A stretch of 64,000 nt of DNA from Candidatus Omnitrophota bacterium. Its GTDB lineage: Bacteria; Omnitrophota; Gorgyraeia; JAHJTE01. The translations under genes were made by a program, and so were the position numbers. The notes beneath the pieces are model-generated. The model made no database searches. It saw only the letters and a list, made by a program, of their open reading frames with translations, and was not told where the DNA came from. Every line of letters starts with the position of its first letter. Within the stretch, counting starts at the first letter, position 1. The DNA is taken from assembly GCA_018830005.1 (NCBI GenBank), contig JAHJTE010000001.1:709624-773623 (forward strand). Direction: 5' to 3'. Below, one piece after another: positions 9,264 to 58,399 of this stretch.

Positions 9264-10149
9264 CGTAGAAGAAGAGGCCTCTAGTATGCGTCTGGACATC
9301 TTCTTGACGCATAAGCTATCGGGATCTGTTTCTCGCAATACAGTAAAAAAGCTTATTAGCCAAGGCCATGTTTTCCTAAACTCTAAAGTTAGGAAACCAT
9401 CTTGTAAGTTAAATTATCAGGATAAGGTTTGCGTTGAAATACCGCAAAAAGAGAAGTCTTGTTTAGAGGCATATTATATGCCTCTAAACATTATCTATGA
9501 GGATGATTCTTTATTGGTTGTTGATAAGCCAACAGGATTGAGTGTTCATCCCGGAGCGGGAAATCGCAACCGCACCTTGGTCAACGTCCTGCTTTCCTAT
9601 ACCCAGAGGCTTTCTGATGTTGATCCCAAACGGCCAGGCATTGTGCATAGGTTGGATAAGGACACCTCAGGGCTGTTAATTATTGCCAGGAATAATCAAG
9701 TCCATCTTAATTTGACACGCCAGTTTAAAGACCGCAGCGTAAAAAAAACCTACCTTGCCATTGTCGAAGGCAAGGTCCAGTTTGATGAGGGATTAGTCGA
9801 TGCACCTGTTGGGCCTGATCCACGCAGGCGTAAATTTATGAAAGTTAATTTTGCTCATAAGCGCCAGGCACAGACAACATATAAAGTGCTTAAACGCCTG
9901 CGAAATTTTAGCGTAGTTGAATTGTCTCCGATTACTGGCCGGACGCATCAGTTGAGAGTGCATATGAAATATCTCGGACATCCAATCTTGGGTGATGAAA
10001 AATATTCTGGCCGTTTTAAATTTAGTCGCCTCGCACTTCATGCAAAATTTATAAGATTACGCCACCCAGAAACAGGCAAGATAATGGAATTTAGCTCTTC
10101 CATTCCAAGAGAGATCTCAGAATTTATAAAACAGCAGGAGAAAATTTAA
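9244..10149 (+). CDS. rluD: RluA-family 23S rRNA pseudouridine synthase (RluD-like)
   Basis: An S4-like N-terminus, then the HRLDKDTSGLLIIARN catalytic motif. Confidence 0.85.
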   Translation: MEKREFNVEEEASSMRLDIFLTHKLSGSVSRNTVKKLISQGHVFLNSKVRKPSCKLNYQDKVCVEIPQKEKSCLEAYYMPLNIIYEDDSLLVVDKPTGLSVHPGAGNRNRTLVNVLLSYTQRLSDVDPKRPGIVHRLDKDTSGLLIIARNNQVHLNLTRQFKDRSVKKTYLAIVEGKVQFDEGLVDAPVGPDPRRRKFMKVNFAHKRQAQTTYKVLKRLRNFSVVELSPITGRTHQLRVHMKYLGHPILGDEKYSGRFKFSRLALHAKFIRLRHPETGKIMEFSSSIPREISEFIKQQEKI

Positions 10150-19611: not shown

Positions 19612-21057
19612 ATGAAAAAAAATAATAAAAAATCCAATTTATCCTCGAGAAGCTTAAAGGTAAAGCTTAAGTTGGCGTTTGCGCTATCTTCGGTTATCCC
19701 TATTTTGATTTTACTTAATATGCTAAACCCTAGCTTGTTTAGTTTTACTTTCAGGCTTAACGAGATACAGCCGATAACTATTAAGTTCTGGCCAATATTT
19801 ATAATTACTACAGTGATTGTAAGTCTGGGTTATTATATCTTGAAGCTGATAATCGATCCGGTAATTTCAATAAGTCGTGATGCCAAACATATAGCCCAGG
19901 GTGATTTCGAACGCGTAATTAAGGTCGGTGCTGACAGAGGGGATGAAATCGGAGATTTGAGCTTTGCCTTAGATAAGTTAACAACGCGAATTCGTAGTTC
20001 AATGCAAGAATTGAGCCAGTACGGCGAGAAGACCAAGAAGATAAATCTGGAGATTAATAAGCGCGTAGTGGTCTTGAGTAATCTCCTGCAGATAAGCACT
20101 TTAATCTCTCAAGGCGCAAACTTAAACGAAATACTACATTTAAGTGTAGATAGGATTATGGAGGTGGGTCAGTCAGAGATAGGTTTCCTGATGGTTAAAG
20201 AGCAGATGAAAAATGTATTGACGATGAGGTCTTTACGCGGCGTAGGCGCAGGGAGATTTGAAAATCTCGAAATCGCAATTGGCGAAAATCCTCTGGCGGA
20301 TTTAATCTATAGAAAAGAGGTTATAATCCTTGATCAAAACAACAAAGATACATCAAGAGAGGTTAACGCCTGGCAGGAAAAGTTTGCAATGCGCAATGCC
20401 GTCATAATACCTTTGTTTGTACGCGGCGATCCCTTGGGTATTATCTGTATTGCCAATAATAAAGAGAACTTTTCTTATACTTCTGACGATTTAGAAGTGA
20501 TTGAAATCTTCGTTAAACAGATAGCGATTGCGCTTGAGACAGATTTCTTACATTTCAGAGTCCAAAAATTAGAGGTAAAGGATGCCCTTACCGGACTTTA
20601 CAATGAAAGATTTGTAAAGGCACGTTTAGATGAAGAGATCAAGAGGGCAATTATTTACCAGAGGCCATGTGCCTTCCTCTTGTTCAATGTTGACAATTTC
20701 AAACGTTACTATACACTTTTTGGCGGCCTTGCCTCTGAGGCCGCACTTAAAAGGATTGCTCTCGTTCTGGAAGATAGTATTACTGATGTAGATAGGGTGG
20801 GGCGTTTTGGTGATAATGATTTTGCTGTAATTTTACCTGAGCGTAATAAAAAAGAGGCCAATAAGATTGCAGAAGATATAAGAAAGAAACTAGAGTTTGT
20901 TTTTAAAGAAGAACCAGACGCCAACAAGAGAATAACCTTAAGCGGTGGCGTAAGCGAAAATCCCATTGATGGCGTTTCTGCACAAGAGCTGGTTGTTAAA
21001 GCGCGGCAGATGCTGATGGAAGCAAAGGCAAGAGGCAAGAACCAGATAAAGGGTTAG
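19612..21057 (+). CDS. membrane HAMP-GAF protein with a degenerate GGDEF domain (GGEEF replaced by GDNDF, no RxxD I-site)
   Basis: Two TM helices and a HAMP region (DLSFALDKLTTRIRS), then a GAF-like region. The GGDEF fold is recognisable (LTGLYNERF...FNVDNFKRY...GRFGDNDFAVILPE) but the catalytic motif is altered. Confidence 0.8.
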   Translation: MKKNNKKSNLSSRSLKVKLKLAFALSSVIPILILLNMLNPSLFSFTFRLNEIQPITIKFWPIFIITTVIVSLGYYILKLIIDPVISISRDAKHIAQGDFERVIKVGADRGDEIGDLSFALDKLTTRIRSSMQELSQYGEKTKKINLEINKRVVVLSNLLQISTLISQGANLNEILHLSVDRIMEVGQSEIGFLMVKEQMKNVLTMRSLRGVGAGRFENLEIAIGENPLADLIYRKEVIILDQNNKDTSREVNAWQEKFAMRNAVIIPLFVRGDPLGIICIANNKENFSYTSDDLEVIEIFVKQIAIALETDFLHFRVQKLEVKDALTGLYNERFVKARLDEEIKRAIIYQRPCAFLLFNVDNFKRYYTLFGGLASEAALKRIALVLEDSITDVDRVGRFGDNDFAVILPERNKKEANKIAEDIRKKLEFVFKEEPDANKRITLSGGVSENPIDGVSAQELVVKARQMLMEAKARGKNQIKG

Positions 21058-21066
21058 AGTTTAACT

Positions 21067-21510
21067 ATGAGCGCATTTAAAAAAGTAATGGCAAAACAAT
21101 TAGGGGAGCTTCTGATTGAACGTGGAGTTATCGGGGCTAAACATCTTGAGAAGGCGCTTGAAGTTCAGAAGGAAAAAGGCGGTCTTATCGGGGAAATCCT
21201 TGTAGAATTAGGTTTTGCAAAGGAAGAGGATATAGCTCATGCATTAACTGCCCAGTACGGGTTTCCATACTTACCTTTAAAAAATTATGATATAGATTTA
21301 GAAATTGTCCGGATTATCCCTAAGAATGTAGCTATCCAGTACTGTCTTATTCCCATAGATAAGATCGGCACCTCGCTAACAGTTGCTATGTCTAATCCAT
21401 TAAATGTTCAGGCGATCGAGGATATAGAACTACTTACCAAGTGCAAGGTTCAGACTTTTGTAAGCACCCCTTCAGATATTAGAGAGACAATAAAGAAATA
21501 TTATAAATAA
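21067..21510 (+). CDS. stand-alone MshEN/T2SSE_N domain protein, a putative c-di-GMP receptor
   Basis: Two tandem copies of the MshEN-type motif, KQLGELLIERGVIGAKHLEKALEVQ and LIGEILVELGFAKEEDIAHALTAQ. No ATPase domain. Confidence 0.75.
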   Translation: MSAFKKVMAKQLGELLIERGVIGAKHLEKALEVQKEKGGLIGEILVELGFAKEEDIAHALTAQYGFPYLPLKNYDIDLEIVRIIPKNVAIQYCLIPIDKIGTSLTVAMSNPLNVQAIEDIELLTKCKVQTFVSTPSDIRETIKKYYK

Positions 21511-21558: not shown

Positions 21559-23274
21559 ATGGTTTCTTTAAAAGAACGCCTTACAGAGATCCTGATTAAG
21601 AATAAAATCATCACGCGGGAGAACCTGGATAAGGCGATTGCAGTTCAGTCTAAAGAAGGCGGAAGGCTGAGCGATATCCTTGTGCGTTTAGGATATGTAG
21701 ACCAGAAAGACTTAGTTATTGCCTTAAGTGAAGGTTTGGGCCTGCCCCCGATTGACCTAAACCGTTTCAAGATTGAATCGGAAGTAACTAAACTTATCCC
21801 CCAGGAGACCGCAAGGCACTACCAGATAATCCCTGTATCAAAAATGGGTAATACGCTTACCTTGGCTATGGCCGATCCTCTCAACGTCTTTGCTATTGAT
21901 GCAGTCAAGACCTTGACAGGTTTTGATATAAATCCGATTATCGCAAAGCCGGAAGATGTGATGAATGCAATTACTCAATATTACGGAGAGGACTCTTACC
22001 AGGCTATAGAAGATATAATTGATGAAATGGGTAAAGATAGCGAGCTGGAAGTTATTAAGGATGAAAAGATAGATTATGCAGACGTGCAGGAATTGGCTCG
22101 TCTTACTCAAGAAGCCCCTGTAATTAAGATTACCAATCTTTTCCTAAAGCAGGGAATTGAAGCCAGGGCCTCGGATATATTAATTGAGCCGTTTGAGAAA
22201 AGTGTTCGCGTTAGGCTACGTGTTGATGGCATGTTAAAAGAGATTGAATCCCCGCCTAGATCTTTACATGCTTCCGTAGTCTCTAGGATTAAGGTAATGT
22301 CTGGAATGGATATAGCCGAACATAGGCTTCCTCAGGATGGAAGATTTAAGATCAAGCTAGAAGGCAAGGATGTTGATTTTCGTGTTTCAGTTTTGCCTTC
22401 TAGCTTTGGAGAAAAGGTTGCTTTGCGTATCCTGGATAAAACTACGGCAAAATTGGATATTACCCAACTTGGATTTGACAAGCATGCCGTGGAGGTTCTA
22501 AAAAAAAGTGCCCTTAAGCCGCATGGTATGATTCTTACCTGCGGCCCTACAGGAAGCGGTAAGACAACCACGTTATATTCTTTGCTTAAATTTATCGATG
22601 CCCCAGATAAGAACATTATTACAGTCGAAGACCCTGTAGAATACCAACTTCGCGGCATTAATCAGGTCACTGTAAATGTAGATATTGGACTTACATTTGC
22701 CAGTTGCCTGCGTTCTATCTTGCGGCAGGATCCTGACATTATTATGGTAGGTGAAATTCGCGATTTTGAAACAGTCGATATTTCAATTAAGGCCGCGTTA
22801 ACAGGCCATCTTGTTTTGAGTACGTTACATACTACTACAGCTCCTGGTTCTGTGATTCGGCTTGGAGATATGGGCGTAGAACCATTTTTAATTACCTCTA
22901 GTGTTATTGCTGTTATGTCCCAGAGGCTACTACGCAAGCTTTGCGAACGCTGTAAAGAAGAGATAGTAGTTAAAGAAGAGGTCTCCAAGAAGGTAGGCAT
23001 AAAGACAGGGACAAAGGTCTTTGCTGCAACGGCCTGCAAGAATTGTCTTAATACTGGTTATGCTGGCCGTTTAGGAATAATAGAGATTTTAGAATTAACC
23101 CCCAAGGTTAAAGAGTTGATACTTGGTCGGGTGCCGGAGGATGTGATTAAGAAAGCTGCTCGCGAGGAAGGGATGAAGACACTTCAGGAGGCTGGTATAG
23201 AAAAAGTTATCGAGGGCCTCACTTCTATAGACGAAGTTGTGCGCCTTACAGCGCCTGATAAAGAAATGGCATAA
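21559..23274 (+). CDS. pilB: type IV pilus assembly ATPase PilB/GspE (copy 1)
   Basis: A GspE-N domain, Walker A GPTGSGKTT, Asp and His boxes and a C4 Zn motif CERC...CKNC. Confidence 0.9.
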   Translation: MVSLKERLTEILIKNKIITRENLDKAIAVQSKEGGRLSDILVRLGYVDQKDLVIALSEGLGLPPIDLNRFKIESEVTKLIPQETARHYQIIPVSKMGNTLTLAMADPLNVFAIDAVKTLTGFDINPIIAKPEDVMNAITQYYGEDSYQAIEDIIDEMGKDSELEVIKDEKIDYADVQELARLTQEAPVIKITNLFLKQGIEARASDILIEPFEKSVRVRLRVDGMLKEIESPPRSLHASVVSRIKVMSGMDIAEHRLPQDGRFKIKLEGKDVDFRVSVLPSSFGEKVALRILDKTTAKLDITQLGFDKHAVEVLKKSALKPHGMILTCGPTGSGKTTTLYSLLKFIDAPDKNIITVEDPVEYQLRGINQVTVNVDIGLTFASCLRSILRQDPDIIMVGEIRDFETVDISIKAALTGHLVLSTLHTTTAPGSVIRLGDMGVEPFLITSSVIAVMSQRLLRKLCERCKEEIVVKEEVSKKVGIKTGTKVFAATACKNCLNTGYAGRLGIIEILELTPKVKELILGRVPEDVIKKAAREEGMKTLQEAGIEKVIEGLTSIDEVVRLTAPDKEMA

Positions 23275-23280
23275 ATTAAA

Positions 23281-24981
23281 ATGGCAACTTTAAGCAATAA
23301 GATATTAGAGATTTTAGTTAAGACAAAGCGCATCTCCCTTAAGCAGAAGCAGCAGGTTTTGTCTTTAAAGAAGCAAAAGGATTCATCAATCAAAGATATC
23401 CTTATTAATGAGGGTTTTATTTCTAATAAGGAGTTGTTAGCAGTTCTTTCAGAAGAATTTAGATTACCGCCTTTAGATCTATCTAAATATAAAATTGATG
23501 CGGAGATAATCAAGATTATTCCCGAACGCCTGGCTCGCCAGCATCATCTTATCTGCGTTTCTCAGATTGGCTCTACGATTACTGTGGCAATGAGTGATCC
23601 TTTAAATATATTCGCGCTTGATGATTTGCGGATTTTGACAAAAAAGGAAATTGATCCTGTAATATCAACTGAAAGCGATATAAACAAAGCTATTGAAAAA
23701 TATTATTGCGGGGACGTGGTTGCTATTTCTTCTTTGCTTGATGAGGGAGATAAAACAGCAGAGGTATTAAGTGTTGATGGCGAACAATCAAATATATCAG
23801 CTGTTATCGAAGAGAGCCAAAAGGCCCCGATTGTAAAAGTCGTTGATTTGATTATTGCCGAGGCCCTTTATAAACGGGCTTCTGATATTCATGTTGAGCC
23901 GGCTGAAGAAGGTTTACGAGTGCGTTACCGCATAGATGGCAATCTGTATGACACTCTTACATTACCGAAAAGCAATCAAAATGCTATTTTAGCGCGACTT
24001 AAGATTATGAGCGGTTTAGACATAACCGAATCAAGGCTTCCGCAAGACGGACGCTTTAAGATTAGGTTGGAATCAAAGGAGATAGACTTTCGTGTTTCTG
24101 CACTGCCGACGACATTTGGTCAAAAGTTCGTTCTGAGGGCATTGGATAAATCAAGTCTTTCTATGGGGTTGGATAAGCTTGGTTTCTTTCCAGAGAGATT
24201 GGCGCTGTTTAAACAGGCGATAGCAAAGCCTTATGGAATGATTTTAGTTACAGGGCCAACAGGAAGCGGGAAATCTACAACCCTTTATTCTATATTGAAT
24301 CGATTGAATACGATGGAAAAAAACATAATTACTGTTGAAGACCCTGTTGAGTATCAGATTGAGGGCATCACCCAGATACATGTAAAACCTGAGATTGGCC
24401 TTACCTTTGCTGCTGGATTACGTTCCATACTGCGTCAAAGTCCGGATATCATTATGATTGGTGAGATTCGCGATTCCGAGACAGCAGATATAGCTGTGCG
24501 TGCTTCTCTAATTGGGCAGTTAGTTTTTTCTACCTTGCACACAAATGATGCTGCTGGCGCAATCACACGTTTAATTGATATGGGGGTTGAGCCATTTCTT
24601 GTTGCCTCTTCAATTATTATGACCTGTGCACAGAGGCTTTGTCGTAAAATATGTAATGCCTGCAAAGAGCCAGTCGAAATCCCGGACAGTATCCTTAAAA
24701 AATTAACTCTAAGGCCAACCAAGACAGATACCTTTTATGCAGGACGCGGCTGTAACCACTGCAACAATACTGGTTATTTTGGCAGATTGGCAGCTTTAGA
24801 AGTCTTGATGATTGACGATAATATATGCAGGATGATTTTAAAAAAATCTTCTAGTGATCAGATTAAGGAATATGCAATTAAAAATAATGGCATGCAGACA
24901 ATCTGGGATGATATGATGCGTAAGCTTAAAATGGGTGCTACTACTTACGAGGAAGTTTTACGCGTAGCGATTGATACATAA
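23281..24981 (+). CDS. pilB: type IV pilus assembly ATPase PilB/GspE (copy 2, tandem paralogue)
   Basis: Same architecture as copy 1. Walker A GPTGSGKST, C4 motif CRKICNAC...CNHC. Confidence 0.9.
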   Translation: MATLSNKILEILVKTKRISLKQKQQVLSLKKQKDSSIKDILINEGFISNKELLAVLSEEFRLPPLDLSKYKIDAEIIKIIPERLARQHHLICVSQIGSTITVAMSDPLNIFALDDLRILTKKEIDPVISTESDINKAIEKYYCGDVVAISSLLDEGDKTAEVLSVDGEQSNISAVIEESQKAPIVKVVDLIIAEALYKRASDIHVEPAEEGLRVRYRIDGNLYDTLTLPKSNQNAILARLKIMSGLDITESRLPQDGRFKIRLESKEIDFRVSALPTTFGQKFVLRALDKSSLSMGLDKLGFFPERLALFKQAIAKPYGMILVTGPTGSGKSTTLYSILNRLNTMEKNIITVEDPVEYQIEGITQIHVKPEIGLTFAAGLRSILRQSPDIIMIGEIRDSETADIAVRASLIGQLVFSTLHTNDAAGAITRLIDMGVEPFLVASSIIMTCAQRLCRKICNACKEPVEIPDSILKKLTLRPTKTDTFYAGRGCNHCNNTGYFGRLAALEVLMIDDNICRMILKKSSSDQIKEYAIKNNGMQTIWDDMMRKLKMGATTYEEVLRVAIDT

Positions 24982-25001
24982 ATTTTTAAAGGGGAGATAA
25001 A

Positions 25002-26201
25002 ATGACAGTTTTCAAATATACGGCGAAAAATAGATCAGGTAAAAAGATCTCAGGCATGCTAGAAGCTGATAATCAGAATCTGGCTATTGAGACTTTGCGT
25101 AAGAAAGAATTAATACCTATTAGCCTATCGGAAGAGAAGGCAAAACGGCGTGTTAGTGGGCGCAAGGTTAAATTGGATGATCTTGTTATTTTTTCTCGTC
25201 AGCTGGCTACGATGGTTGATTCAGGAATTCCCCTTGTTCAGGCATTAAGCATTCTAGGAGAGCAGGTGCAAAAGGAAAATTTCCGGCAGGTGATTTTAAG
25301 GATACGTCAAGATATCGAAGAAGGTGCAGGTTTTTGTGATGCCCTGGCTAAGCACACAGCAGTATTTTCTCCGCTTTACATTAATATGGTAAAGGCAGGA
25401 GAAGCAAGTGGTTTATTGAATGAGATATTAGATAGGTTAGCTAATTATTTAGAAAAGGCAAGCGCCTTGCAGAGAAAGGTAAAATCTTCCTTGACCTATC
25501 CAATCGTGGTAATTGCCATGGCCTTAATTATTACTATCTTTTTGCTGGTTAAGGTTGTTCCAACATTTAGAGGTATATTTGATATGCTTGGCGGTACCTT
25601 GCCTTTACCTACGCGGATCTTGATTGGTTTCAGCGATATGTTGCGGCATTCATTCTTGTATATTGTAATTTTCTTAGTTGGTGTAGTATTCCTGCTTAAG
25701 AAATGGTCAAAGACTCCAAGGGGGAGAAGGACCATTGATTATTACCTACTCAAGCTTCCTGTCTTTGGCCCACTTTTAAAGAAAGTAGCAATAGCTAAGT
25801 TCAGCCGGACACTTTCTACGTTAGTAAGAAGCGGCGTTCCTATCTTAGGTTCCTTAGAGATTGTAGGCAAGACAGCAGGCAATAAAATAGTTGAAGAGGC
25901 ATTAGATAACGCGCGCAAGTCTATTAAAGAAGGTGAGCCTATTTCCGGCCCCTTGAGTGAAAGCGATGCGTTTCCGCCTATGGTAGTAAGGATGATTGCT
26001 GTAGGCGAACAGACAGGCGAGTTGGAGAAGATGTTAAGCAAGATCGCTGACTTTTATGATGAGCAGGTTGATGCCACAGTAAGTTCTATGACAAGTTTAA
26101 TTGAGCCAATGGTCATCGCCTTTTTAGGTGTTATTATCGGTGGCATTGTAGTCTCATTATTCTTGCCCATATTTAAGATTACGGAACTATTGGGAAGATG
26201 A
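25002..26201 (+). CDS. pilC: type IV pilus platform protein PilC (GspF family)
   Basis: Two GspF repeats and three TM helices. It follows the pilB genes. Confidence 0.9.
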   Translation: MTVFKYTAKNRSGKKISGMLEADNQNLAIETLRKKELIPISLSEEKAKRRVSGRKVKLDDLVIFSRQLATMVDSGIPLVQALSILGEQVQKENFRQVILRIRQDIEEGAGFCDALAKHTAVFSPLYINMVKAGEASGLLNEILDRLANYLEKASALQRKVKSSLTYPIVVIAMALIITIFLLVKVVPTFRGIFDMLGGTLPLPTRILIGFSDMLRHSFLYIVIFLVGVVFLLKKWSKTPRGRRTIDYYLLKLPVFGPLLKKVAIAKFSRTLSTLVRSGVPILGSLEIVGKTAGNKIVEEALDNARKSIKEGEPISGPLSESDAFPPMVVRMIAVGEQTGELEKMLSKIADFYDEQVDATVSSMTSLIEPMVIAFLGVIIGGIVVSLFLPIFKITELLGR

Positions 26202-26275: not shown

Positions 26276-26305
26276 TTGACTTTGTAATAGTTAGGTGTCT
26301 ATAAT
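26276..26305 (+). promoter_or_regulatory. sigma70-type promoter TTGACT-N18-TATAAT for the riboswitch-pilA transcript
   Basis: TTGACT at 26276-26281, TATAAT at 26300-26305, about 50 nt upstream of the GEMM element. Confidence 0.5.
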
Positions 26306-26352
26306 ATATTTTACAGGGCCTAATTTTTATGGTATACTTGAGGTAACATTGA

Positions 26353-26468
26353 AAAAGGCAAACCAGTCGTAAGGCTGGGACGCAAAGCTAAAGGGCCTTG
26401 TGAAAGGGTAGCCAGTTACCAATGAGAATAACCTATTTCAGGTGACTGGAATAGGTTTTATTTTTTTG
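26353..26468 (+). ncRNA. c-di-GMP-I (GEMM) riboswitch-like leader with a terminator expression platform (copy 1)
   Basis: GGCAAACC-AGTC-GTAA(GNRA)-GGCTGG-GACGCAAAGC-TAAAGGGCC matches the GEMM core (Vc2: GGCAAACCAUUCGAAAGAGUGGGACGCAAAGCC). It is followed by hairpin CCTATT...AATAGG plus a T-run at 26430-26468. Confidence 0.8.
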
Positions 26469-26578: not shown

Positions 26579-27007
26579 ATGAGAAACAGATCAGGTTTTA
26601 CCTTGGTTGAAATCATGATTGTTGTTGCTATTATTGCTTTATTGGCAGCCATAGCAATACCTAACCTGTTGCGTGCTCGTCTCAATGCTAACGAGTCTGC
26701 ATCGATTGCTGCTATGCAGACGCTTTCTACTGCAGCCCAGAGTTATCGTTCAGCTAATCCTAGTTATCCTACTAACTTAGCTGCTTTGTCTAACGCAACT
26801 CCACCTTATATTGATTCTGTATTAGCAGGTGGAACAAAATCAGGCTATGCATTTATTTTGACAGGTACCACAAATGCATTTACTGCAACTGCTGCTCCTA
26901 GCACTGTGGGCACTACGGGTAATAGATATTTCTTTGTTGATGAAAGTGGTGTTGTCAGGTATGCTAGTGGCGCTGCAGCTACATCTGCAAGCAGCCCAAT
27001 TGAATAA
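26579..27007 (+). CDS. pilA: type IV major pilin (PilA-like), leader MRNRSG followed by FTLVEIM
   Basis: GGAGG RBS 9 nt upstream of the ATG at 26579 (the track start at 26570 is a TTG). Class III signal peptide G|FTLVEIMIVVAIIALLAAIAIPNL, 142 aa, Ser/Thr-rich C-terminal tail. Confidence 0.85.
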   Translation: MRNRSGFTLVEIMIVVAIIALLAAIAIPNLLRARLNANESASIAAMQTLSTAAQSYRSANPSYPTNLAALSNATPPYIDSVLAGGTKSGYAFILTGTTNAFTATAAPSTVGTTGNRYFFVDESGVVRYASGAAATSASSPIE

Positions 27008-27086: not shown

Positions 27087-28856
27087 ATGAAAAGATCACA
27101 ACAAATTATACTTATTATCCTTGTCGGTTTATTGTTTTATTTTAATAGTCTTTTTAATGGGCTTGTTTGGGATGATGAGTTTTTAATCAAGGACAACCCT
27201 TATATCAGAAGCATTCCGACTGCTTTTTCTTACGCCTTTTCTAATGATCTATTCCCGGGAGAGCTACTATTTAAGCGGACTAATTATTATCGGCCCCTGC
27301 AGACACTAAGTTACTCTCTAGATTTTTTTATCTGGAAAGATACGCCCTTTGGTTTTCATCTCGCTAATTTAATCCTGCATATTATTAATGCCCTTTTAAT
27401 ATATTTAATTATTTCCTGTCTTTATAATCTGCCTTTGGTTTCTTTTGTTTGTGCCTTATTCTTTGTAGCCCATCCTATTCATCATGAGGCAGTGAGCTAT
27501 ATCTCTGGCCGTGCAGATTTATTGGCAGCATTTTTTATCTTGAGCTCTTTTTATTGCTTCCTTAAATATAGACTCGAGAATATAGCTGTGCGGCGCAATT
27601 ATTTCCTTGTTTTATCATTTATTTGTTTCTTTTTAGCACTTCTTTCTAAGGAGTATGCACTTATCCTGCCTTTCCTATTTTTATCCTTTGATTTTTCTTT
27701 TCAAAAATTAAATAGAAAAAATCTAGGCCAATACGTTTTCTTCTTACCCCTGATATTCCTCTTTATCATGTTGCGACTTTCTGCTTTAGGATTGGATAAT
27801 TCATTGCTGGGCGGCAGATATGCACATTTACTTTGGCAGGAATTGCCGATTCGTTTTTTTGGTTTTATAAAAAGCATACCGCTTTACTTAGGTATTTTAA
27901 TTTTTCCGGTTGATTTGCATATGCGCAGAGCCTTTCCCAGACCTGCAGGCCTTTTCGATCCTTTAGTATGGATTGGTATTTTTATTTTGCTCAGTTGTTA
28001 CTTCATTTTTTATAAAAGGAGAAAACAGGAGCCGCTTTATTTATTTTTGTTTCTTTGGTTTTTGATTCCTGTAGTTTCTCAATCACAGCTAACGCTTTCC
28101 GGATTTGGCTTTGCCGAGCACTTTTTATACCTTGCCTCAATGGGCGTCTTCTTTGCTTTTGCAAAGGTTTTTGTGGGCCTTTTTCTTAAATTTAAAGCAA
28201 GGGCGCAAAAACAGAGATTTATCGTTACTATACTTTTAATCTTACTTAGTTTTTATGGCAGCTTGACGAGTGTCCATAATCTTAACTGGAAGGATAGTCT
28301 GACATTCTATAAGTGGACGCTGAAGTTTTCACCCGAGAGCATTAAGTTGCGCATAAATCTAGCCAGAGAGTATATTGCCCTAGGTAGGGATGATCTGGCC
28401 TTAGTTGAATTCTTACGTGCTAAAAAGTTATTAGAGCAAGTGGAGGTATCTAAATATAAAGATAAACCAATTTTAGATTGGACTCTGAATGAGGCGATAG
28501 TAGTCGGCTATTACAATGTGGCTGTGCTTCATGCCAGCCAGAAAGATTATACAAGGGCGGAGCAGGAATATCGGCTGTCCCTTGCGATTAAGCCAAATTT
28601 TAATAAGGCACGTAATAATCTAGCTGCCTTATTGACCAAGCTAGGCAGAGATAAAGAGGCGATAGAGCAATTGTCGCTTGTTTTGAGTTCTGATCCAGAA
28701 GATTTAAAGGCATATTATAATCTGGGCGCAATCTTAGCGAATCTAGGCGAAGATGAAAAGGCAAGGCAGGTCTGGCAAGATGGCTTAAAGATAGATCCGG
28801 ATGATGCCAAGATTGGCGATGCGCTTGCGAGGCTCCTGGAAGAGAAGAAGAGATGA
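27087..28856 (+). CDS. PMT/TMTC-like GT-C glycosyltransferase domain (DUF1736-like, NGLVWDDEF motif) fused to a C-terminal TPR array
   Basis: About 11 TM helices and an acidic DD(E/F) motif in the first periplasmic loop, as in protein O-mannosyltransferases. C-terminal TPR repeats (YYNVAVLHASQKDYTRAEQEYRLSLAIKPN...). Confidence 0.65.
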   Translation: MKRSQQIILIILVGLLFYFNSLFNGLVWDDEFLIKDNPYIRSIPTAFSYAFSNDLFPGELLFKRTNYYRPLQTLSYSLDFFIWKDTPFGFHLANLILHIINALLIYLIISCLYNLPLVSFVCALFFVAHPIHHEAVSYISGRADLLAAFFILSSFYCFLKYRLENIAVRRNYFLVLSFICFFLALLSKEYALILPFLFLSFDFSFQKLNRKNLGQYVFFLPLIFLFIMLRLSALGLDNSLLGGRYAHLLWQELPIRFFGFIKSIPLYLGILIFPVDLHMRRAFPRPAGLFDPLVWIGIFILLSCYFIFYKRRKQEPLYLFLFLWFLIPVVSQSQLTLSGFGFAEHFLYLASMGVFFAFAKVFVGLFLKFKARAQKQRFIVTILLILLSFYGSLTSVHNLNWKDSLTFYKWTLKFSPESIKLRINLAREYIALGRDDLALVEFLRAKKLLEQVEVSKYKDKPILDWTLNEAIVVGYYNVAVLHASQKDYTRAEQEYRLSLAIKPNFNKARNNLAALLTKLGRDKEAIEQLSLVLSSDPEDLKAYYNLGAILANLGEDEKARQVWQDGLKIDPDDAKIGDALARLLEEKKR

Positions 28857-36874: not shown

Positions 36875-38729
36875 AAAATTAGCAATTTCTATAAGTATTT
36901 TCTTTTTCTTATTTTTGATATTACAAAATACTTCAGGTCCTGAGTCATTAGTTATCGCAGAGGAATTAGAGCTGGAGGATTTATCGCAACTCTTTGAGGA
37001 AGAGATTGATGTAGAAATTTTTGGCCTTGAGGATGAGGTTTCTTCTGAGATTATGGCTGAAGAGCTTAATGAAGAGGAATTAAAGGCGGTAGAGGCTGAG
37101 TTTGAAGAGGCTGAAGAAATCTTTGGCCTAGGTCAAGAAGAGGAGGCCTTGGATATCCCAGAAGAGGTTGCAGCGGAAATTTTGGCAGAAGAGCTCCCTA
37201 TTGTTACAGAATCTGAGTTGTCGTCTGAATTAGACCAGCTTGAGCCGGCAGGAAAGAAGCTGGCCGAAGAGGTTACTGAGGTGCAAGAGGGGAAGACGCA
37301 AGAGGAGGAGTTACCGGTTACCAAGGTATCCCTTGATTTTAAAGAGGCAGATATTAGAAATGTGTTAAGAATCCTTTCTTATAAAAGTGGAGTTAATATT
37401 GTTGCAAGCCCTGAAGTAACCGGCTTAGTTACTATAAGACTTACTGATGTTCCTTGGGATAAGGCATTAGATGTGGTGCTTGATACTTATGGTTTCGGAC
37501 ATGAACGCAAGGAAAACATTATTACGGTTTATCCTATGGAAATGCTTACTGCAAGAAAAAGCCAAGAGCAGGCGTTAGCGGCAGTTCAGCCTACAGTAAC
37601 TAAAGTTATAAAACTAAAGTTTATTGATGCTACTGATATGAAGAAGGCGCTTGATCCACAGCTATCTCCGCGCGGCAGGGTTACTGTTTTGGAGGCAACC
37701 GGTCAAGCTGGATGGGAATTTGGCGGCTCAGAGTTAGGTAAAAGAGCGCGCATAGGTGAAAAAACGAGCAGATCGAAAATGCTCATTATCTCTGATATCC
37801 CTCCGGTATTAGAAAGGCTAGAGGAGGTTATTGCTGAATTAGATGTGCGGCCAGAGCAGGTGTTAATTGAAGTGAGACTTTTGGAAGTAAATCGCGATAA
37901 ATTATCTGACTTAGGTATGGAGTGGGGTACAGGCTCTGATGGTACAGGCTTTATCGAGACAAGCGGTAAGGGTTTAGACGGAAGCTCAGAGACTCAACTT
38001 AGCGTCCAAGGCGAAACGCTTCAAGTATCGCCTTCGACGTTTTCTTCTAAGTCTGGTTTTTCTGGAATTACACCGTTTAATGCTGGCCTTACTGCTACAT
38101 TCCAAAAGATTACCGGCAGTCAGTTTCAGGCTATATTACATGCTGTAGCAGAGGACGTAGAAGTAAATACACTTTCAGCACCACGCATCTTGACATTGAG
38201 TGATCAGGAGGCGACTATCCTAATAGGAAGCAAATATCCTATTCTTACCTCTGATGTAAGTACAGAGGCAGGGGCGACAGTTACCACAACACTTGATTAC
38301 TATGAGGATATCGGAATCCAGCTTAATGTTGTGCCTCAGGTTAATGACGATGGCTATATTAATCTAATCGTACATCCTGCGGTAACTTCTATTTCAAGCT
38401 ACATAGGGGACAATTCCTATCCTGTAATAATAACCCGTGAGGCAGAGACACAGCTTTTGATTAAAGATGGCGAGACAATAGTCATTGGTGGACTGCTTAA
38501 GGATGTAAAGGGAGAGTCAGAAATTGGCATTCCATTTTTAAGTAAGATCCCTATTCTAGGTTTTTTATTTAGGCGCACGGTAGTAGATATAGAAAAGATC
38601 GATCTTTTAATATTTATAACTGCAAGAGTAGTTAAATCCGAAGGGGACCTGATAACGTTTAAACAAAGCGTAGAAACTCCGGTCAGAAATTTAATACCAG
38701 CAGAGCCCGTAATTAAAGAAGAAGAGTAA
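36858..38729 (+). CDS. pilQ: type IV pilus secretin PilQ with an acidic Glu-rich N-terminal extension
   Basis: GTG start after an AAGGAGGG RBS. AMIN/N0-N1-like domains and a C-terminal secretin signature (IVIGGLLKD...EIGIPFLSKIPILGFLF). Confidence 0.9.
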   Translation: MQVKIKKLAISISIFFFLFLILQNTSGPESLVIAEELELEDLSQLFEEEIDVEIFGLEDEVSSEIMAEELNEEELKAVEAEFEEAEEIFGLGQEEEALDIPEEVAAEILAEELPIVTESELSSELDQLEPAGKKLAEEVTEVQEGKTQEEELPVTKVSLDFKEADIRNVLRILSYKSGVNIVASPEVTGLVTIRLTDVPWDKALDVVLDTYGFGHERKENIITVYPMEMLTARKSQEQALAAVQPTVTKVIKLKFIDATDMKKALDPQLSPRGRVTVLEATGQAGWEFGGSELGKRARIGEKTSRSKMLIISDIPPVLERLEEVIAELDVRPEQVLIEVRLLEVNRDKLSDLGMEWGTGSDGTGFIETSGKGLDGSSETQLSVQGETLQVSPSTFSSKSGFSGITPFNAGLTATFQKITGSQFQAILHAVAEDVEVNTLSAPRILTLSDQEATILIGSKYPILTSDVSTEAGATVTTTLDYYEDIGIQLNVVPQVNDDGYINLIVHPAVTSISSYIGDNSYPVIITREAETQLLIKDGETIVIGGLLKDVKGESEIGIPFLSKIPILGFLFRRTVVDIEKIDLLIFITARVVKSEGDLITFKQSVETPVRNLIPAEPVIKEEE

Positions 38730-50499: not shown

Positions 50500-52227
50500 T
50501 TATTTAGTAGGAGGCCTTTCTGGTATGAGGAAAACACACACCTTGTTTCTACCTGTCTCTTTGGCTTTATAAAGCGCCTTGTCAGCGAAAGAGATTAATT
50601 CTTTAGGGGTCTGGGCATCTGTCTCAGTTAAGGATGCGATTCCTATACTGATTGTTACCTTTAGAGGCTGGTTCCCTTTATAAGGGAAGTTAAATTCTTC
50701 AATAGATTTTCTTAGACGTTCAGCGTAGATACTGGCGCCTTTTGCAGTTGTATTAGGCAAAATACAGCAGAATTCTTCACCGCCGTAACGGGCCACGACA
50801 TCCACTCTGCGGCTGCTCTCCTGGATGATCCTAGCAACATTCTTTAAGATTACATTTCCTTCTTCATGCCCGTAAGTGTCGTTTACTTTTTTAAAGTGGT
50901 CAACATCCATTATCAAAAATGTAAGTTGAGTATTTTCCTCTTTTGCGTGTGCAAATTCAGAATCAAGTTTAAGTATTAGATAGCGATGTACAAAGAGTCC
51001 TGTGAGCCCATCAGTAATCGCCATAGTTTTTAAGATTGCTGCCTCAACCAATAAGCGCATATATTTGTATGTCTCCGTGCCCAGATACAAAAATGCGGCA
51101 ATAAATATCGGACCAAAGTAGTCAAAGGATAAGTTTTGATAGGAAAGCAGAAAGGAAACAAGCATAAGCCCTAAAAGCTCTAGCGCCAAAAGAAGGGAAC
51201 CTTTAAGGATTGAGAGTTTATAGGTGAATATTGCGGTGCAAATTGCAACTATTAGAATCAACAGGATTGAGAAAATCTCAGGCGTCTCTTTTAGAAAATT
51301 TCCTGATAAGTACATTAGGATTTCATTGGCATTGATTACTACCCCTGGCATCAGGCCCAGGGGGGTAGGGTAGACATCGTGAAAGATTTCAGCAGTCGTG
51401 CCGACGAGAATAATCTTTTTGTGGATACTTGCTTTACTAGCAGTTTTATTGATTATTTTATGAAAGGGGATGATTTCAAAGTCTTTATTTTTTGCCTGGT
51501 AATTAATCAATGCTGTGCCTTTTTCTGAAAGAGGAATGATTACTTGCTTTGTTGTTTTTGCCACATCTTTTAGATTGATAAGCATTCTGCGATTATTAAG
51601 TGAGACGTCGTTTTTAATATCGCTTTCGTGATAGCGCAAAAAGGTCTTTAGTCCGAAAGAGGTTTTTAGTATTCCCGGAAGGTCTTTTCTTGGAAACAGG
51701 AGGCGGCAATTACGCACGGTTAAATCTTTATCGCGTGTCTTGTTAACAAAGCCAAAGCCTAAGGCTGCTTTTTGCAAAGGCAGATAAGGTTCATTATAAC
51801 TTTTATCCGGGGCAATGTAACTTGCAAGAATTACATTGCCTGCATTTTTAATTGCCTCAGCCAGTGCCGAATCATCATCCTTATTATTGCTTTCTCCTGT
51901 AAATACCATATCCAGACTAATGATCTTTGGTCTGTATTCATTTAGGTTATCAATAAATTCACTCAAGAAACTTCGTGACCAGGGCCATTTTTTCTGCAAG
52001 ACCATGAATGATTCGTCATCAATAACAACAAGGCTGATCTCTTTTAATTCTTTGGGTTTAGGTTTTAACTGATAAGTAAGGCGATTAAACAAATCAGCAG
52101 TTTTTAACGAAAGGATATTTAAAAAAGTAATTTTATGGGAGGAAAAAGAATAAGCCAGGCTTATAATCATCGCCACACAGATTACCTTTATCAGATTCTT
52201 ATCCCAGGATATCTTTTTCTTTTTCAT
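50500..52227 (-). CDS. CHASE2 sensor-domain diguanylate cyclase (canonical GGEEF, RxxD I-site present)
   Basis: N-terminal periplasmic CHASE2-like region, three C-terminal TM helices, GGDEF domain with DVDHFKKVNDTYGHEEGN and RRVDVVARYGGEEF. Confidence 0.85.
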   Translation of the reverse strand: MKKKKISWDKNLIKVICVAMIISLAYSFSSHKITFLNILSLKTADLFNRLTYQLKPKPKELKEISLVVIDDESFMVLQKKWPWSRSFLSEFIDNLNEYRPKIISLDMVFTGESNNKDDDSALAEAIKNAGNVILASYIAPDKSYNEPYLPLQKAALGFGFVNKTRDKDLTVRNCRLLFPRKDLPGILKTSFGLKTFLRYHESDIKNDVSLNNRRMLINLKDVAKTTKQVIIPLSEKGTALINYQAKNKDFEIIPFHKIINKTASKASIHKKIILVGTTAEIFHDVYPTPLGLMPGVVINANEILMYLSGNFLKETPEIFSILLILIVAICTAIFTYKLSILKGSLLLALELLGLMLVSFLLSYQNLSFDYFGPIFIAAFLYLGTETYKYMRLLVEAAILKTMAITDGLTGLFVHRYLILKLDSEFAHAKEENTQLTFLIMDVDHFKKVNDTYGHEEGNVILKNVARIIQESSRRVDVVARYGGEEFCCILPNTTAKGASIYAERLRKSIEEFNFPYKGNQPLKVTISIGIASLTETDAQTPKELISFADKALYKAKETGRNKVCVFLIPERPPTK

Positions 52228-52435
52228 TGTAAAATTAGTCTAGCATAAAAGTGGGGTTTAGGCAAGGCTAAAATCTCTGAGTATGTTTTTATAACTTTAA
52301 CATTAGCAATAGGTTGCATTAAGGATATCTTTTGTTTTCAGCTTGAAATCATGCATTGTCTATGTTATACTTAAATTGTTAGGAAATAAGCTCGAAAAAA
52401 CCCTGAATCTAGTGTTCTGTATAGGGCATTAGTCG

Positions 52436-52604
52436 GAAAAGGCAAACCATTTGAAAGAATGGGGCGGATTGAAGTGTCTGGCTTGATAAGAGCCGCAAAG
52501 CTAAAAGAGCCTACGTCCTGAATTTTTAGGATAGGGTAGTCAGCTGCCGAGATTAAGGTTTGTAACCCTATTCTTTTGTAAAAAAATAGGGTTTTTTATT
52601 TTTA
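52436..52604 (+). ncRNA. c-di-GMP-I (GEMM) riboswitch-like leader with terminator (copy 3, extended variant)
   Basis: GGCAAACC-ATTT-GAAA-GAATGG-GGCGG[...GGCTTGATAAGAGCC]GCAAAGC. Terminator AACCCTATTC...AATAGGGTT plus T-run directly before the ATG at 52617. Confidence 0.8.
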
Positions 52605-52616
52605 TGAGGCCTTAAG

Positions 52617-53282
52617 ATGAAAAGAAAAGGTTTTAGTTCATTAGAGTTAATAATTGGCTTAGCCCTTACGGCTATTATGGCTACTATGGGCATTGTTAAT
52701 TTCAGTAGCCAGGATGCGTTATTGCTTGATGCTGCAGCCCAAAAAGTTGTCTCTGACTTAAATTACGCCAGGATGTTGGCTATTGACATGGGAGAGCAAA
52801 GCGAATATACTTATTCTGGAGGCGAAGCAGGCGAGGAGGCAGGCAACTTTGTGGTTATGGATTTTAGTGATGAGGCTTCAACTCTTCCTAGTTCTTATCG
52901 CGCTGTTCCTGCGTTACAGCTGCCTGCAGAAACTGGAGATCCTGTTGGCACAAGAATTAGTGTGTTATATGAACCGGTAGTGAGAAATATTACAGAAAAA
53001 GTTGAACTTTTTTTTCCTAGTGAAGATGATTTTAAACAAGTCAAGATACAATCTGTAGACTTTGGCGATGACGGATCAGGCGGCGCTTATAACGCTGTTC
53101 GTTTTGAAGGACCTACAGGCAGACCAATGAACGGTACCTGGGTTATGGGGAATGATGAAAATGCTTATTTTTCAACTGATACAGGATTGGGAAGTTCAGG
53201 TGGCATTATTGTTGTAGAGTATAATGGCAGAACTAAGATAGTCAGGATTTCTCGTATCGGAAGGATTACTATTGAAAATTAA
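52617..53282 (+). CDS. prepilin-type pilin-like protein, KG|FSSLELIIGLALT
   Basis: ATG with a GAGG RBS. Class III signal peptide. 221 aa with a Gly-rich C-terminal domain. Confidence 0.7.
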   Translation: MKRKGFSSLELIIGLALTAIMATMGIVNFSSQDALLLDAAAQKVVSDLNYARMLAIDMGEQSEYTYSGGEAGEEAGNFVVMDFSDEASTLPSSYRAVPALQLPAETGDPVGTRISVLYEPVVRNITEKVELFFPSEDDFKQVKIQSVDFGDDGSGGAYNAVRFEGPTGRPMNGTWVMGNDENAYFSTDTGLGSSGGIIVVEYNGRTKIVRISRIGRITIEN

Positions 53283-53790
53283 TAATATTAGTAACAGATT
53301 GCATAAACTGTTAATTTTAAAAGCTCCATCAGGTCTATCACTGATGGAGCTTTTGGTTGTTATTGTCATTATCGCAGTATCCTTATTGCCTCTCTATGCC
53401 TTATTCAATCAAGCAATACTAGCCCATGTAACTGCTCAAGTTATGACTACTTCTTCTTATCTTGGCCAGTATGCTATGGAAAGTATGTTGTCCAAGGATT
53501 TTTTTGAGCTTCTTAACGAACTTGATAGTGATGTGCATTCTTATGGCAACGATACTGTCTTTGCTGGCCCTTTTTCTAAGTATAAATACACAATAGAGGT
53601 TGATGCTATTGATCCTGAATACGGTGGCGCTGGAGGGGATTTAGCTGATATAAGTGCGAGAGTTAGTTCAGCTGATGGCGTTGCAAGCGGCAGTTATCTG
53701 CGTATCTATGTAAGGATAACAAATGATATTCAGCCCGGTAAGCAATTAGAACTCTACAGTATAGTCACACCAGCAGGAGACGGGTATTGA
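53272..53790 (+). CDS. prepilin-like pseudopilin, ...APSG|LSLMELLVVIVIIAV
   Basis: The track start is a TTG overlapping the upstream gene, so the true start is uncertain. Methylation-type motif with L at +1. Confidence 0.55.
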   Translation: MKINNISNRLHKLLILKAPSGLSLMELLVVIVIIAVSLLPLYALFNQAILAHVTAQVMTTSSYLGQYAMESMLSKDFFELLNELDSDVHSYGNDTVFAGPFSKYKYTIEVDAIDPEYGGAGGDLADISARVSSADGVASGSYLRIYVRITNDIQPGKQLELYSIVTPAGDGY

Positions 53791-53791
53791 T

Positions 53792-54331
53792 ATGAAAACA
53801 AAAGGGTTTACTCTTATAGAAATGGTTATTAGCATTGCGGTTTTAGCTATTATTGCTGTAGTGCTTACCCCTATTGTATTACAATCAATAGATTTATTTT
53901 TGATGTCCAGAACTCAAGAGGTACTTGCTAATGAATCAAGATTTGCCATGAATTGGATGTCAGAAGAAATAAAAACAGAATGCGCAAGTTTCAATACTAT
54001 TGACGGTATGAGTTTGACATTTACAACCTGTGCAACGTGTGATCCTCCCAATACACCGATTTCCTATGATTGGGATAGTGCTAATAATAGATTGATTCGA
54101 ACAGTTGGCGGAGGAGACGACAACGACGATATTTTAGCTGAAAGAGTAAGTTTTGCAGAGTTTCGGGTTTTTGATACAGTTGATTTAGATATGTCGGCAG
54201 GACAGACTAACGTGAGTGATTTCAGTACGTTTGATGTAAGATTTGTGCAGATAAGATTAGCGATAACAGATGATACTGGAACAAAGGCCTATAGCCTTGT
54301 AACTCGGATTATGCCGCGTTATCTGCAATAG
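53792..54331 (+). CDS. prepilin-type minor pilin, KG|FTLIEMVISIAVLAII
   Basis: ATG start, AGGAGA RBS, canonical GFTLIEM motif. 179 aa. Confidence 0.7.
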   Translation: MKTKGFTLIEMVISIAVLAIIAVVLTPIVLQSIDLFLMSRTQEVLANESRFAMNWMSEEIKTECASFNTIDGMSLTFTTCATCDPPNTPISYDWDSANNRLIRTVGGGDDNDDILAERVSFAEFRVFDTVDLDMSAGQTNVSDFSTFDVRFVQIRLAITDDTGTKAYSLVTRIMPRYLQ

Positions 54332-54334
54332 CCA

Positions 54335-56995: not shown

Positions 56996-57175
56996 TTTCT
57001 GTATTTGTAACTTTAATATAGCAATATGTTGTATAAGATAAAAAAATATTGCTTAGCCTTGAAATATAACAGGAGGTATGTTATATTTTATGTTGACAAT
57101 TTAGAAATGAAGCGAAAAGTCCCGAATCTAGTAGTTTAGGTGTCGGGATCCCTTCTAAAATGCTAAATATTTTAG

Positions 57176-58374: not shown

Positions 58375-58399
58375 TTAGTTGACAATTAGTTAAGTACGA

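Follow-up and report, generated by a model that had tools for sequence, protein, structure and literature searches.

The 64,000 nucleotides (nt) analyzed here, referred to below as the window, come from a Candidatus Omnitrophota bacterium (GenBank assembly GCA_018830005.1, contig JAHJTE010000001.1, positions 709,624 to 773,623 of the forward strand) and encode four related type IV pilins, numbered 1 to 4 in order of position. Five RNA aptamers of the cyclic di-GMP (c-di-GMP) I clan, RS1 to RS5, lie upstream of these pilins and of the minor pilins that accompany them. We consider that the window encodes a single type IV pilus machine together with pilin genes in two groups, forming a pilus regulon that is repressed by c-di-GMP, and assign this reading a probability of about 0.6.

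The regulon would consist of five units: the major pilin, two sets of minor pilins, the short pilin and its partner, and the modular pilin together with its own. At the start of each unit a promoter-like site would be followed by a c-di-GMP-I aptamer and a separate intrinsic terminator, parts of which are complementary to strands of the aptamer. In the ligand-free leader an aptamer strand would pair with an arm of the terminator and transcription would read through; once c-di-GMP is bound the aptamer would be locked, the terminator would form and transcription would stop. High c-di-GMP would then lower the transcription of all pilus structural genes together.

Four pilins and their common head motif

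Pilin 1 (26579-27007, 142 amino acids, aa), pilin 2 (57363-57632, 89 aa, 84 aa when mature), pilin 3 (58607-60316, 569 aa) and pilin 4 (60337-60831, 164 aa) are all encoded on the plus strand, with the positions and the size range of 89 to 569 aa that an earlier note on this DNA had given. All four carry a type IV pilin signal, the class III signals reading G/FTLVE in pilins 1 and 2, G/FSSIE in pilin 3 and G/LTLFE in pilin 4, and behind each signal comes a hydrophobic helix that has Pro22 in the context (S/A)(I/L)P. The Pfam model N_methyl (PF07963) and TIGR02532 are matched above their cut-offs by pilins 1 and 2 only. The leader of pilin 4 is unusually long at 20 aa; in its orthologs the leader has 6 aa.

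The kinship of the four does not depend on the helix. With the N-terminal helix removed, BLASTP aligns pilin 1 to pilin 4 with an E value of 7e-15, pilin 3 to pilin 4 with 2e-13 and pilin 1 to pilin 3 with 1e-8, and pilin 2 matches pilin 1 at 9e-6, pilin 4 at 6e-4 and pilin 3 at 8e-3. As the helix-less sequences still match, the resemblance exceeds chance and the paralogy proposed by the earlier note is real: as far as sequence can tell, these are genuine paralogous type IV pilins. The multiple alignment that the note had called for extends the kinship over the entire head of about 90 aa in pilins 1, 3 and 4, including the elements GY.F..., F...A.P and TG.R.F.VD..G; pilin 2 has in common with them just the 36-aa segment that contains the motif. 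Four further prepilin-like open reading frames (ORFs) were found by a six-frame scan (at 31461, 52629, 53332 and 53804) and a fifth by Pfam (at 30903), and the head motif is absent from all five.

The earlier note had described this motif as a pattern lying just after the N-terminal helix and marking out the family. As written, the pattern was nearly right. In the four-way alignment of the flagged segment the invariant columns are A-N-E, A, Y, Y-P and L, and no others; the first position is S, T, A and A in pilins 1 to 4, not A/E; the first spacing before L/M is x-x-x and had been given one residue short, as x-x; and pilin 2 breaks three positions, having N where the pattern asks for E/Q, Y in place of R and E in place of D/N. 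The placement after the helix does not hold, as the motif aligns to a part of the helix in pilins of solved structure and coincides with alpha-1C, the second half of the alpha-1 helix, together with the first turn of the alpha-beta loop. Its L/M, L/I and A, at i, i+3 and i+6/7, lie on the hydrophobic face of an amphipathic helix, and such an alpha-1C signature would pack the helix onto the beta-sheet of the head. The Y-to-YP spacing varies even among orthologs of pilin 1.

Nor is the motif special to these four proteins. A 43-residue profile of the motif only, built without the hydrophobic helix, retrieved seven PDB matches, five of them GspG pseudopilins that all align at the same helix position; they read A(I/V)SD(I/L)VALE(S/G)ALDMY(K/R)LDN(S/N)RYPT and have the Y-to-YP spacing of the window motif. 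A corrected strict regular expression matched 3 of 183 prepilin-like ORFs from 81 sources, all three of them from the window. The motif was rejected as a family-specific signature, since the motif-only profile recovers GspG and the strict expression is over-fitted. All four pilins match the GspG model TIGR01710 over its first half (positions 1 to 66 or 71 of 134), with 45.1, 48.6, 23.6 and 31.1 bits for pilins 1 to 4, every score below the cut-off of 88.85. All four also match the ComGC and Myxococcus PilA models well under the equivalog cut-offs. Against Pfam T2SSG (PF08334, gathering score 21 bits) pilin 2 lies just above the threshold at 21.2 bits and pilins 1 and 4 below it at 12.3 and 12.8; pilin 3 has no match, and those of the other three are confined to profile positions 4-47, where the motif lies.

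The solved structures closest to pilin 1 are Geobacter PilA-N, Thermus PilA4, Myxococcus PilA and GspG, with E values of 1e-11 to 1e-8 for the Geobacter and Thermus proteins. These alignments extend through the motif (for example SAASSDLRNLKTALESAFADDQTYP), and that to Thermus PilA4 covers residues 7-104 of pilin 1. Being present in GspG, Geobacter and Thermus pilins, the motif is therefore largely the generic pilin feature that the earlier note had allowed it might be. These comparisons indicate that the motif (ANE...L..L..A.E.Y.....YP) is an inherited head signature of GspG/T2SSG type, not special to pilins 1 to 4, and that it is class-wide and not universal. In Verrucomicrobial and Kiritimatiellae pilins retrieved with pilin 1 the helix periodicity is kept and QWALE replaces Y.....YP.

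Pilin 1 belongs to a large family, with about 8000 matches, of which the best 120 clusters comprise pilin 1 itself, 100% identical to an NCBI protein from a Candidatus Omnitrophica bacterium, and 119 others at 63-83% identity; among these, every source name that gives an organism is Omnitrophica or Omnitrophota. Its gene lies directly 3' of pilB, pilB and pilC and 5' of minor pilins and pilMNOQ. Because the family is large and tightly conserved and the gene follows pilBBC, pilin 1 is likely to be the conserved PilA of Omnitrophota and the major subunit of the pilus. Three pilin 1-like, motif-bearing paralogs occur within 4 kb of a further Omnitrophota genome (L002, at 10016, 12696 and 13618), so the window is not alone in having several PilA-like copies.

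Riboswitches and the predicted sign of control

In the window, five matches to Rfam families of the c-di-GMP-I clan (CL00126) exceed the gathering score, at 43.6-68.9 bits, and all five lie on the plus strand. RS1 (26348-26424; RF03167, 66.8 bits, where the gathering score is 59) precedes pilin 1, RS2 (57171-57290; RF01051, 50.3 bits) precedes pilin 2 and its partner, and RS5 (58395-58484; RF03167, 68.9 bits) precedes pilins 3 and 4. The other two belong to minor-pilin units: RS3 (32144-32230; RF01051, 51.8 bits) stands before a PilX-like gene, pilMNO and the secretin, and RS4 (52431-52551; RF01051, 43.6 bits) before the second minor-pilin operon. Three of the four pilins thus stand behind separate riboswitches, as had been claimed, and pilin 4 starts 20 nt after pilin 3.

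The arrangement extends well beyond this genome. A covariance model made from RS1 to RS5 finds aptamers 5' of pilin 1 orthologs in at least 14 other Omnitrophota loci, 5' of pilin 2 orthologs in three (L083, L084 and L087) and 5' of pilin 3 orthologs in two (L081 and L082); Rfam confirms nine aptamers in the related loci at gathering score. Since aptamers precede orthologs of pilins 1, 2 and 3 in other loci, the association of pilins with riboswitches is a trait of the phylum. In one locus (L050) two tandem c-di-GMP-I aptamers (9454-9557 and 9641-9744) lie 5' of a single pilin 1 ortholog, both above the Rfam gathering score and each with its own terminator-like hairpin.

All five window aptamers contain GGCAAAC ... 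GCAAAGC and keep G20, the unpaired G before GCAAAC, and A47, the first A after the junction G-C pairs, which we take from the Vc2 structure to be the ligand contacts. Among orthologs the junction pair shows a compensatory change from C-G to U-A. Because the contact bases are canonical and the junction change is compensatory, RS1 to RS5 are expected to bind ordinary c-di-GMP. They fall into three subtypes: RS1 and RS3 are 78% identical, RS2 and RS4 77%, and RS5 is 58-60% identical to the others. RS2 and RS4 have an extra hairpin of about 30 nt that separates the P1a helix from the junction G-C pair and is treated by Rfam as an insertion; larger insertions occur at the same site in L001, L004, L012 and L082. 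Different c-di-GMP thresholds for the three subtypes are possible.

RS1 and RS5 score above the gathering threshold of RF03167, the c-di-GMP-I-GGC variant, and better there than against RF01051. The two consensus sequences differ at one core position, GACGC-G-AA in RF03167 and GACGC-A-AA in RF01051, and RS1 and RS5 carry A at this site. The idea that they sense another ligand was rejected, as the variant-defining G is absent. True variants of this type, with G at the same position (GCGAAGC), are found at L001 9601-9751, 5' of a pilin 1 ortholog, and at L082 4200-4367, 5' of a pilin 3 ortholog. A different change is seen in the aptamer 5' of the pilin 3 ortholog at L081 9691-9777 (RF03167, 60.8 bits), where A replaces the unpaired G before GCAAAC (AAUAGCAAAC). 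In Geobacter GEMM-I aptamers A in place of that G switches the ligand to 3'3'-cyclic GMP-AMP.

Downstream of each window aptamer lies a separate intrinsic terminator with which it has no nucleotides in common, a layout found in five of five leaders. The terminators of the three pilin aptamers start 5-20 nt 3' of the aptamer, all on the plus strand: that of RS1 is a hairpin at 26430-26457 with a U-run to 26467 (12-bp stem, -15.2 kcal/mol), that of RS2 a hairpin at 57310-57336 with a U-run to 57346, and that of RS5 a hairpin at 58495-58522 with a U-run to 58532. Counting window and related loci together, 25 of 28 aptamers are followed within 60 nt by a hairpin and U-run. A promoter-like site lies just 5' of each pilin aptamer; before RS1 there are two overlapping sigma-70-like sites on the plus strand (26276-26338), TTGACT-18-TATAAT (11 of 12 positions) and TTTACA-17-TATACT with an extended TG, both of them consensus matches only. 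Control by attenuation, which the earlier note had proposed, is accordingly plausible for leaders composed of aptamers and terminators.

The sign of this control is predicted from folding. Because aptamer and terminator do not overlap, a folded aptamer cannot keep the terminator from forming, and competition would have to come from aptamer strands released in the ligand-free state. In RS2 the aptamer segment AAAGAAUGGGG (P1a strand) pairs with the terminator 5' arm CCCUAUUCUUU, and the minimum free energy (MFE) structure of the whole leader is the antiterminator form, at -61.9 kcal/mol against -54.4 for aptamer plus terminator. The P1a hairpin sequence of the RS5 aptamer recurs in its terminator arms, and here antiterminator and aptamer plus terminator are nearly isoenergetic (-40.4 and -41.5). 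For RS1 the possible alternative joins the aptamer 3' strand CCAGUUACC to the terminator segment GGUGACUGG, in a form 7.6 kcal/mol less stable than aptamer plus terminator. Complementarity between aptamer and terminator exceeds that of shuffled terminators, with z < -2 in 14 of 25 leaders and a mean z of -2.1; within the window z is -4.3 for RS2, -3.0 for RS5, -2.8 for RS4, -1.6 for RS1 and -1.3 for RS3. We therefore predict five OFF switches, with a polarity that is best supported for RS2, RS4 and RS5 and least for RS1 and RS3.

Several observations weigh against a regulon repressed in this way. The ligand-free MFE structures of RS1 and RS5 are already aptamer plus terminator, and complementarity is weak in RS1 and RS3. 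When aptamers were paired with their own terminators or with those of other loci the two sets did not discriminate, at -12.5 and -11.3 kcal/mol, a comparison made uninformative by sequences that are conserved without covariation. The three aptamer subtypes, and the second full set of minor pilins beside pilins 2 to 4, leave room for a second filament. Finally, both PilB ATPases carry MshEN domains, which sits awkwardly beside repression at the RNA level. In Vibrio, c-di-GMP binding to MshEN domains activates pilus assembly; if binding stimulates assembly here, RNA-level repression would form a counteracting limb. With two diguanylate cyclases flanking the loci and MshEN domains in the ATPases, c-di-GMP may act on proteins as well.

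The earlier note had suggested differential selection, with the four pilins as alternative major-pilin variants. Under such a model riboswitches of different c-di-GMP thresholds would choose the one that builds the filament, possibly giving two filament types from one machine. This is unlikely, though less so than the alternatives that follow. The three subtypes (RS1/RS3, RS2/RS4 and RS5), the complete GspH/PilV/PilW/PilX-like minor-pilin set adjoining pilins 2 to 4, the two PilB paralogs, the agreement of pilin 4 with pilin 1 in size and in the whole head, and the three pilin 1-like paralogs of L002 can all be counted in its favor, as can a precedent in Thermus, where two pilus types are built from PilA4 and PilA5 by one machine. 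Layout, predicted polarity and ligand-contact bases are nevertheless alike in all five leaders, and riboswitches also precede minor pilins that every filament requires. Pilin 3, with 569 aa, and pilin 2, with 84 aa when mature, are improbable as bulk or shaft subunits, and the relatives detected number three for pilins 3 and 4 and 41 for pilin 2, against about 8000 for pilin 1. The four are thus better described as a PilA, a short pilin with a partner, a modular pilin and its neighbor than as equivalent major-pilin variants; of the kinds of variation that had been envisaged, an extra module is found, at the C-terminus of pilin 3. Separate transcription units would each need a sensor of their own, so several riboswitches do not by themselves imply selection, and the layout and contact bases that the leaders have in common speak for joint repression when c-di-GMP is high.

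A related and more doubtful possibility is that the island at 52.4-60.8 kb encodes a second, distinct filament, assembled by the same machine and perhaps by the second PilB. The thresholds of the aptamer subtypes would then choose the type of pilus, and pilin 2 and its partner would form a split pilin with interchangeable C-terminal modules.

It is similarly improbable that the riboswitches are ON switches by which c-di-GMP induces the pilins. A precedent exists in the class II riboswitch (Cdi-2-4) of Clostridioides difficile pilA1, which promotes read-through when c-di-GMP is bound (PMC6366702). The terminators present in the ligand-free folds of RS1 and RS5 might be relieved by some other ligand-dependent rearrangement, and the MshEN-type ATPases suggest that c-di-GMP favors piliation. 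A bound aptamer cannot, however, prevent terminators that start 5-30 nt 3' of it without overlap, and the sole competing helices draw on aptamer strands that would be tied up once ligand is bound. The closer analog is the class I aptamer Cd1 at flgB of C. difficile, which terminates transcription on ligand binding (PMC6366702).

That pilins 1 to 4 are pseudopilins of a type II secretion system, as might be supposed from their matches to the GspG model, the name "type II secretion system GspH family protein" given to pilin 1 by NCBI, the presence of a secretin and a T2SSB-like match, and a window in which PilT was not found, is very unlikely, given that the GspG scores of 23.6-48.6 bits lie far under the cut-off and cover the first half of the model only, that pilin 1 scores higher against Myxococcus PilA (49.6 bits), that the closest solved relatives are type IVa pilins, that PilM, PilO, PilX_N and PilV-type genes lie alongside, and that no GspC, GspL or GspM genes were seen.

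Accessory pilins and surrounding genes

Pilin 3 is built in three parts, all encoded on the plus strand: an N-terminal pilin module of about 185 aa that carries the motif (58607-59161), a Pro/Thr-rich linker (59162-59416) that is Cys-rich in orthologs, and an all-beta C-terminal module of about 300 aa (59417-60316). The three orthologs detected have 505-512 aa and the same three-part build. The C-terminal module matches no Pfam or NCBIfam model, and its profile retrieves 2199 representative proteins at E<=1e-3, with 240 reaching E<=1e-30. Among the proteins listed, of 259-2228 aa, the domain lies mostly at or near the C-terminus and in a few is N-terminal or internal. Of ten carriers scanned, five also have domains of an extracellular kind, namely Peptidase_C25, PKD, fn3, CUB, Laminin_G_3, beta-helix or TSP3, and the other five have no Pfam match.

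A first AlphaFold2 model of the module, from four sequences, was poor, with a predicted local distance difference test (pLDDT) score of 53; an alignment of 32 sequences gave an all-beta model with pLDDT 90.9 and a predicted template-modeling (pTM) score of 0.89. Searches of the PDB with Foldseek returned weak, partial matches to jelly-roll and carbohydrate-binding module (CBM) folds (CBM6/22/32/35, APC10 and PNGase F), with TM scores of 0.2-0.3 normalized by query. Pilin 3 can thus be described as a modular pilin, in which a pilin module is joined through a linker to a domain that is also present outside pilins, and an adhesive or glycan-binding role for the module is plausible. Its 300-aa module would form two beta-sandwiches displayed on the Pro/Thr-rich linker.

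There is no terminator in the 20 nt that separate pilins 3 and 4, and the two are probably co-transcribed. On the two orthologous contigs that were compared (L081 and L082) the order is tyrS, CHASE2-GGDEF on the minus strand, aptamer, pilin 3 and a pilin 4-like protein. The pilin 4 orthologs there, of 158 and 167 aa, are encoded directly 3' of pilin 3 and are 57% and 49% identical to pilin 4. As their order is kept in both contigs, pilins 3 and 4 constitute a conserved pair, which would act as accessory subunits. The gene that follows the pair in L081 (12535-15621) encodes a 1028-aa Peptidase_C25 protein, and a separate Peptidase_C25 protein (P0169) has the pilin 3-type domain at its end; these hint that the 300-aa domain links pilus and secreted-protease biology.

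Pilin 2 consists of alpha-1 and a conserved tail, and is too short to hold the sheet of a pilin head. The 41 matches found include 12 orthologs of 88-101 aa, in which the tail reads DYITIxN(I/V)xxKYELN. Its gene is followed on the plus strand by one for a 203-aa secreted protein with a Sec signal (57653-58264), and on all five contigs read the pilin 2 ortholog is directly followed by an ORF of 83, 295 or 369 aa that carries a signal peptide (among them L083 5119-6006, L085 1566-2675 and L086 339-590). The partner proteins share just some 25 residues after the signal, WL(I/V)K(S/T)K...(L/V)W.DG, and differ completely in their remaining length and sequence. This segment could be a docking segment that carries interchangeable modules; hhalign detected no similarity between it and pilin heads. 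Pilin 2 would work as a short pilin together with the secreted protein encoded next to it, and we advance as a hypothesis, by analogy, that the two form a split pilin of the Geobacter PilA-N/PilA-C type.

The window has a GC content of 39% and is chromosomal, containing ftsQA, ileS, lgt, aroA, mreBCD, PBP2, rodA, RNase G, obg, rpsA and tyrS. The first pilus cluster occupies 19.6-38.7 kb and opens with a GAF-GGDEF cyclase (19612-21057) and a stand-alone MshEN-domain protein of 147 aa (21067-21510). Two PilB-type ATPases with MshEN domains and PilC follow (21559-26201, plus strand), and then pilin 1, two membrane-TPR proteins, two minor pilins, a PilX-like protein, PilM, a PilO-like protein and the secretin; PilM, the PilO-like and T2SSB-like proteins and the secretin are encoded at 34364-38729 on the plus strand. 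The second pilin group, at 52.4-60.8 kb, lies 3' of a divergent CHASE2-GGDEF cyclase on the minus strand (50500-52227), whose position next to the accessory pilins is retained in L081 and L082. It runs from a GspH/PilV/PilW-like minor-pilin set through an 860-aa Cys-rich PilX-like protein, pilin 2 and the 203-aa secreted protein to pilins 3 and 4, with the minor-pilin operon behind RS4 at 52617-56917. No Peptidase_A24 (PilD) was found among the window ORFs scanned. A strict regular expression for the MshEN c-di-GMP-binding motif gave zero matches; by eye, two near-complete motifs are seen in the stand-alone MshEN protein and in no other MshEN protein.

The two proteins encoded directly 3' of pilin 1 (27087-28856 and 28853-30790) have polytopic membrane N-terminal halves, which match no Pfam or NCBIfam model, and C-terminal TPR repeats. 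They could be pilin-modifying enzymes, since the tail of pilin 1 is rich in Ser, Thr and Ala. The final gene of the RS4 operon (54335-56917) encodes the 860-aa protein, which has a PilX_N-like N-terminus and no family match. It contains 6.3 copies of a 20-aa Cys-rich repeat (CCEGCYSSSNCTDSCPSTSS) at 54971-55350 and about six copies of a CSNYE pentapeptide repeat at 55748-55833.

Significance and relation to known systems

Omnitrophota are uncultured, often ultra-small bacteria that are thought to depend on contact with other cells, and pili are for that reason probably central to their life; literature tying the phylum specifically to riboswitches or pili was not found. Every pilin transcription unit of the locus carries a predicted direct RNA link to c-di-GMP, the arrangement recurs across the phylum, and the predicted sign of control, repression, is opposite to that of the best-studied pilin riboswitch. 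The locus overturns no current ideas, and its head motif is ordinary. Paralogous pilins, the GspG-type alpha-1C signature, modular pilins and GEMM/c-di-GMP-I aptamers 5' of pilus genes are all of kinds already known. What is new is the presence of five aptamers in 32 kb that cover every pilin unit, their recurrence across Omnitrophota and the predicted OFF polarity, together with a widespread yet unnamed 300-aa beta domain on a pilin and a conserved pair of short pilin and secreted partner. The modular pilin, the short-pilin pair and the occurrence of three subtypes among five natural class I aptamers of a single cell also provide handles for experiment.

Among known proteins the GspG pseudopilins (PF08334; PulG 1t92, EpsG 3gn9) have the same class III signal as pilins 1 to 4 and the same alpha-1C pattern, A(I/V)SDLxxLExALDMY(K/R)LDNxRYPT, with identical Y-to-YP spacing. 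The window pilins differ in scoring a quarter to half of the equivalog cut-off, in leaving the second half of the head unmatched, and in lying within a pilus cluster of PilMNOQ type rather than gspC-M. Geobacter PilA-N (2m7g, 6vk9) and Thermus PilA4 (6xxd) are the closest solved relatives of pilin 1 and align with it through the motif; a point of difference is that pilin 1 possesses a full head.

In Geobacter a very short pilin is followed by a partner gene, and the two products form a heterodimeric PilA-N/PilA-C pilin (PMC11046646). Pilin 2 resembles this system in its shortness and in the conserved secreted ORF adjacent to it, but has 84 mature residues, not 61, and a partner without profile similarity to pilin heads. 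Modular pilins consist of a pilin carrier to which a functional module has been added; they are widespread and believed to be exposed at the tip (PMC8179133). Streptococcus sanguinis PilB and PilC and CofB of enterotoxigenic Escherichia coli likewise combine pilin module, linker and grafted functional module; pilin 3 differs in that its module is an unnamed all-beta domain of about 300 aa with weak CBM-like fold matches.

At the level of RNA, RS1 and RS5 share with the c-di-GMP-I-GGC family (RF03167) the model score but not its defining G. The leader of the C. difficile major pilin gene pilA1 combines a c-di-GMP riboswitch with an intrinsic terminator, as do the leaders described here; that riboswitch is class II and ON, whereas the window aptamers are class I, are predicted to be OFF, and stand before five pilin units. 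The logic predicted for them is that of C. difficile Cd1, a class I aptamer in which ligand binding leads to termination.

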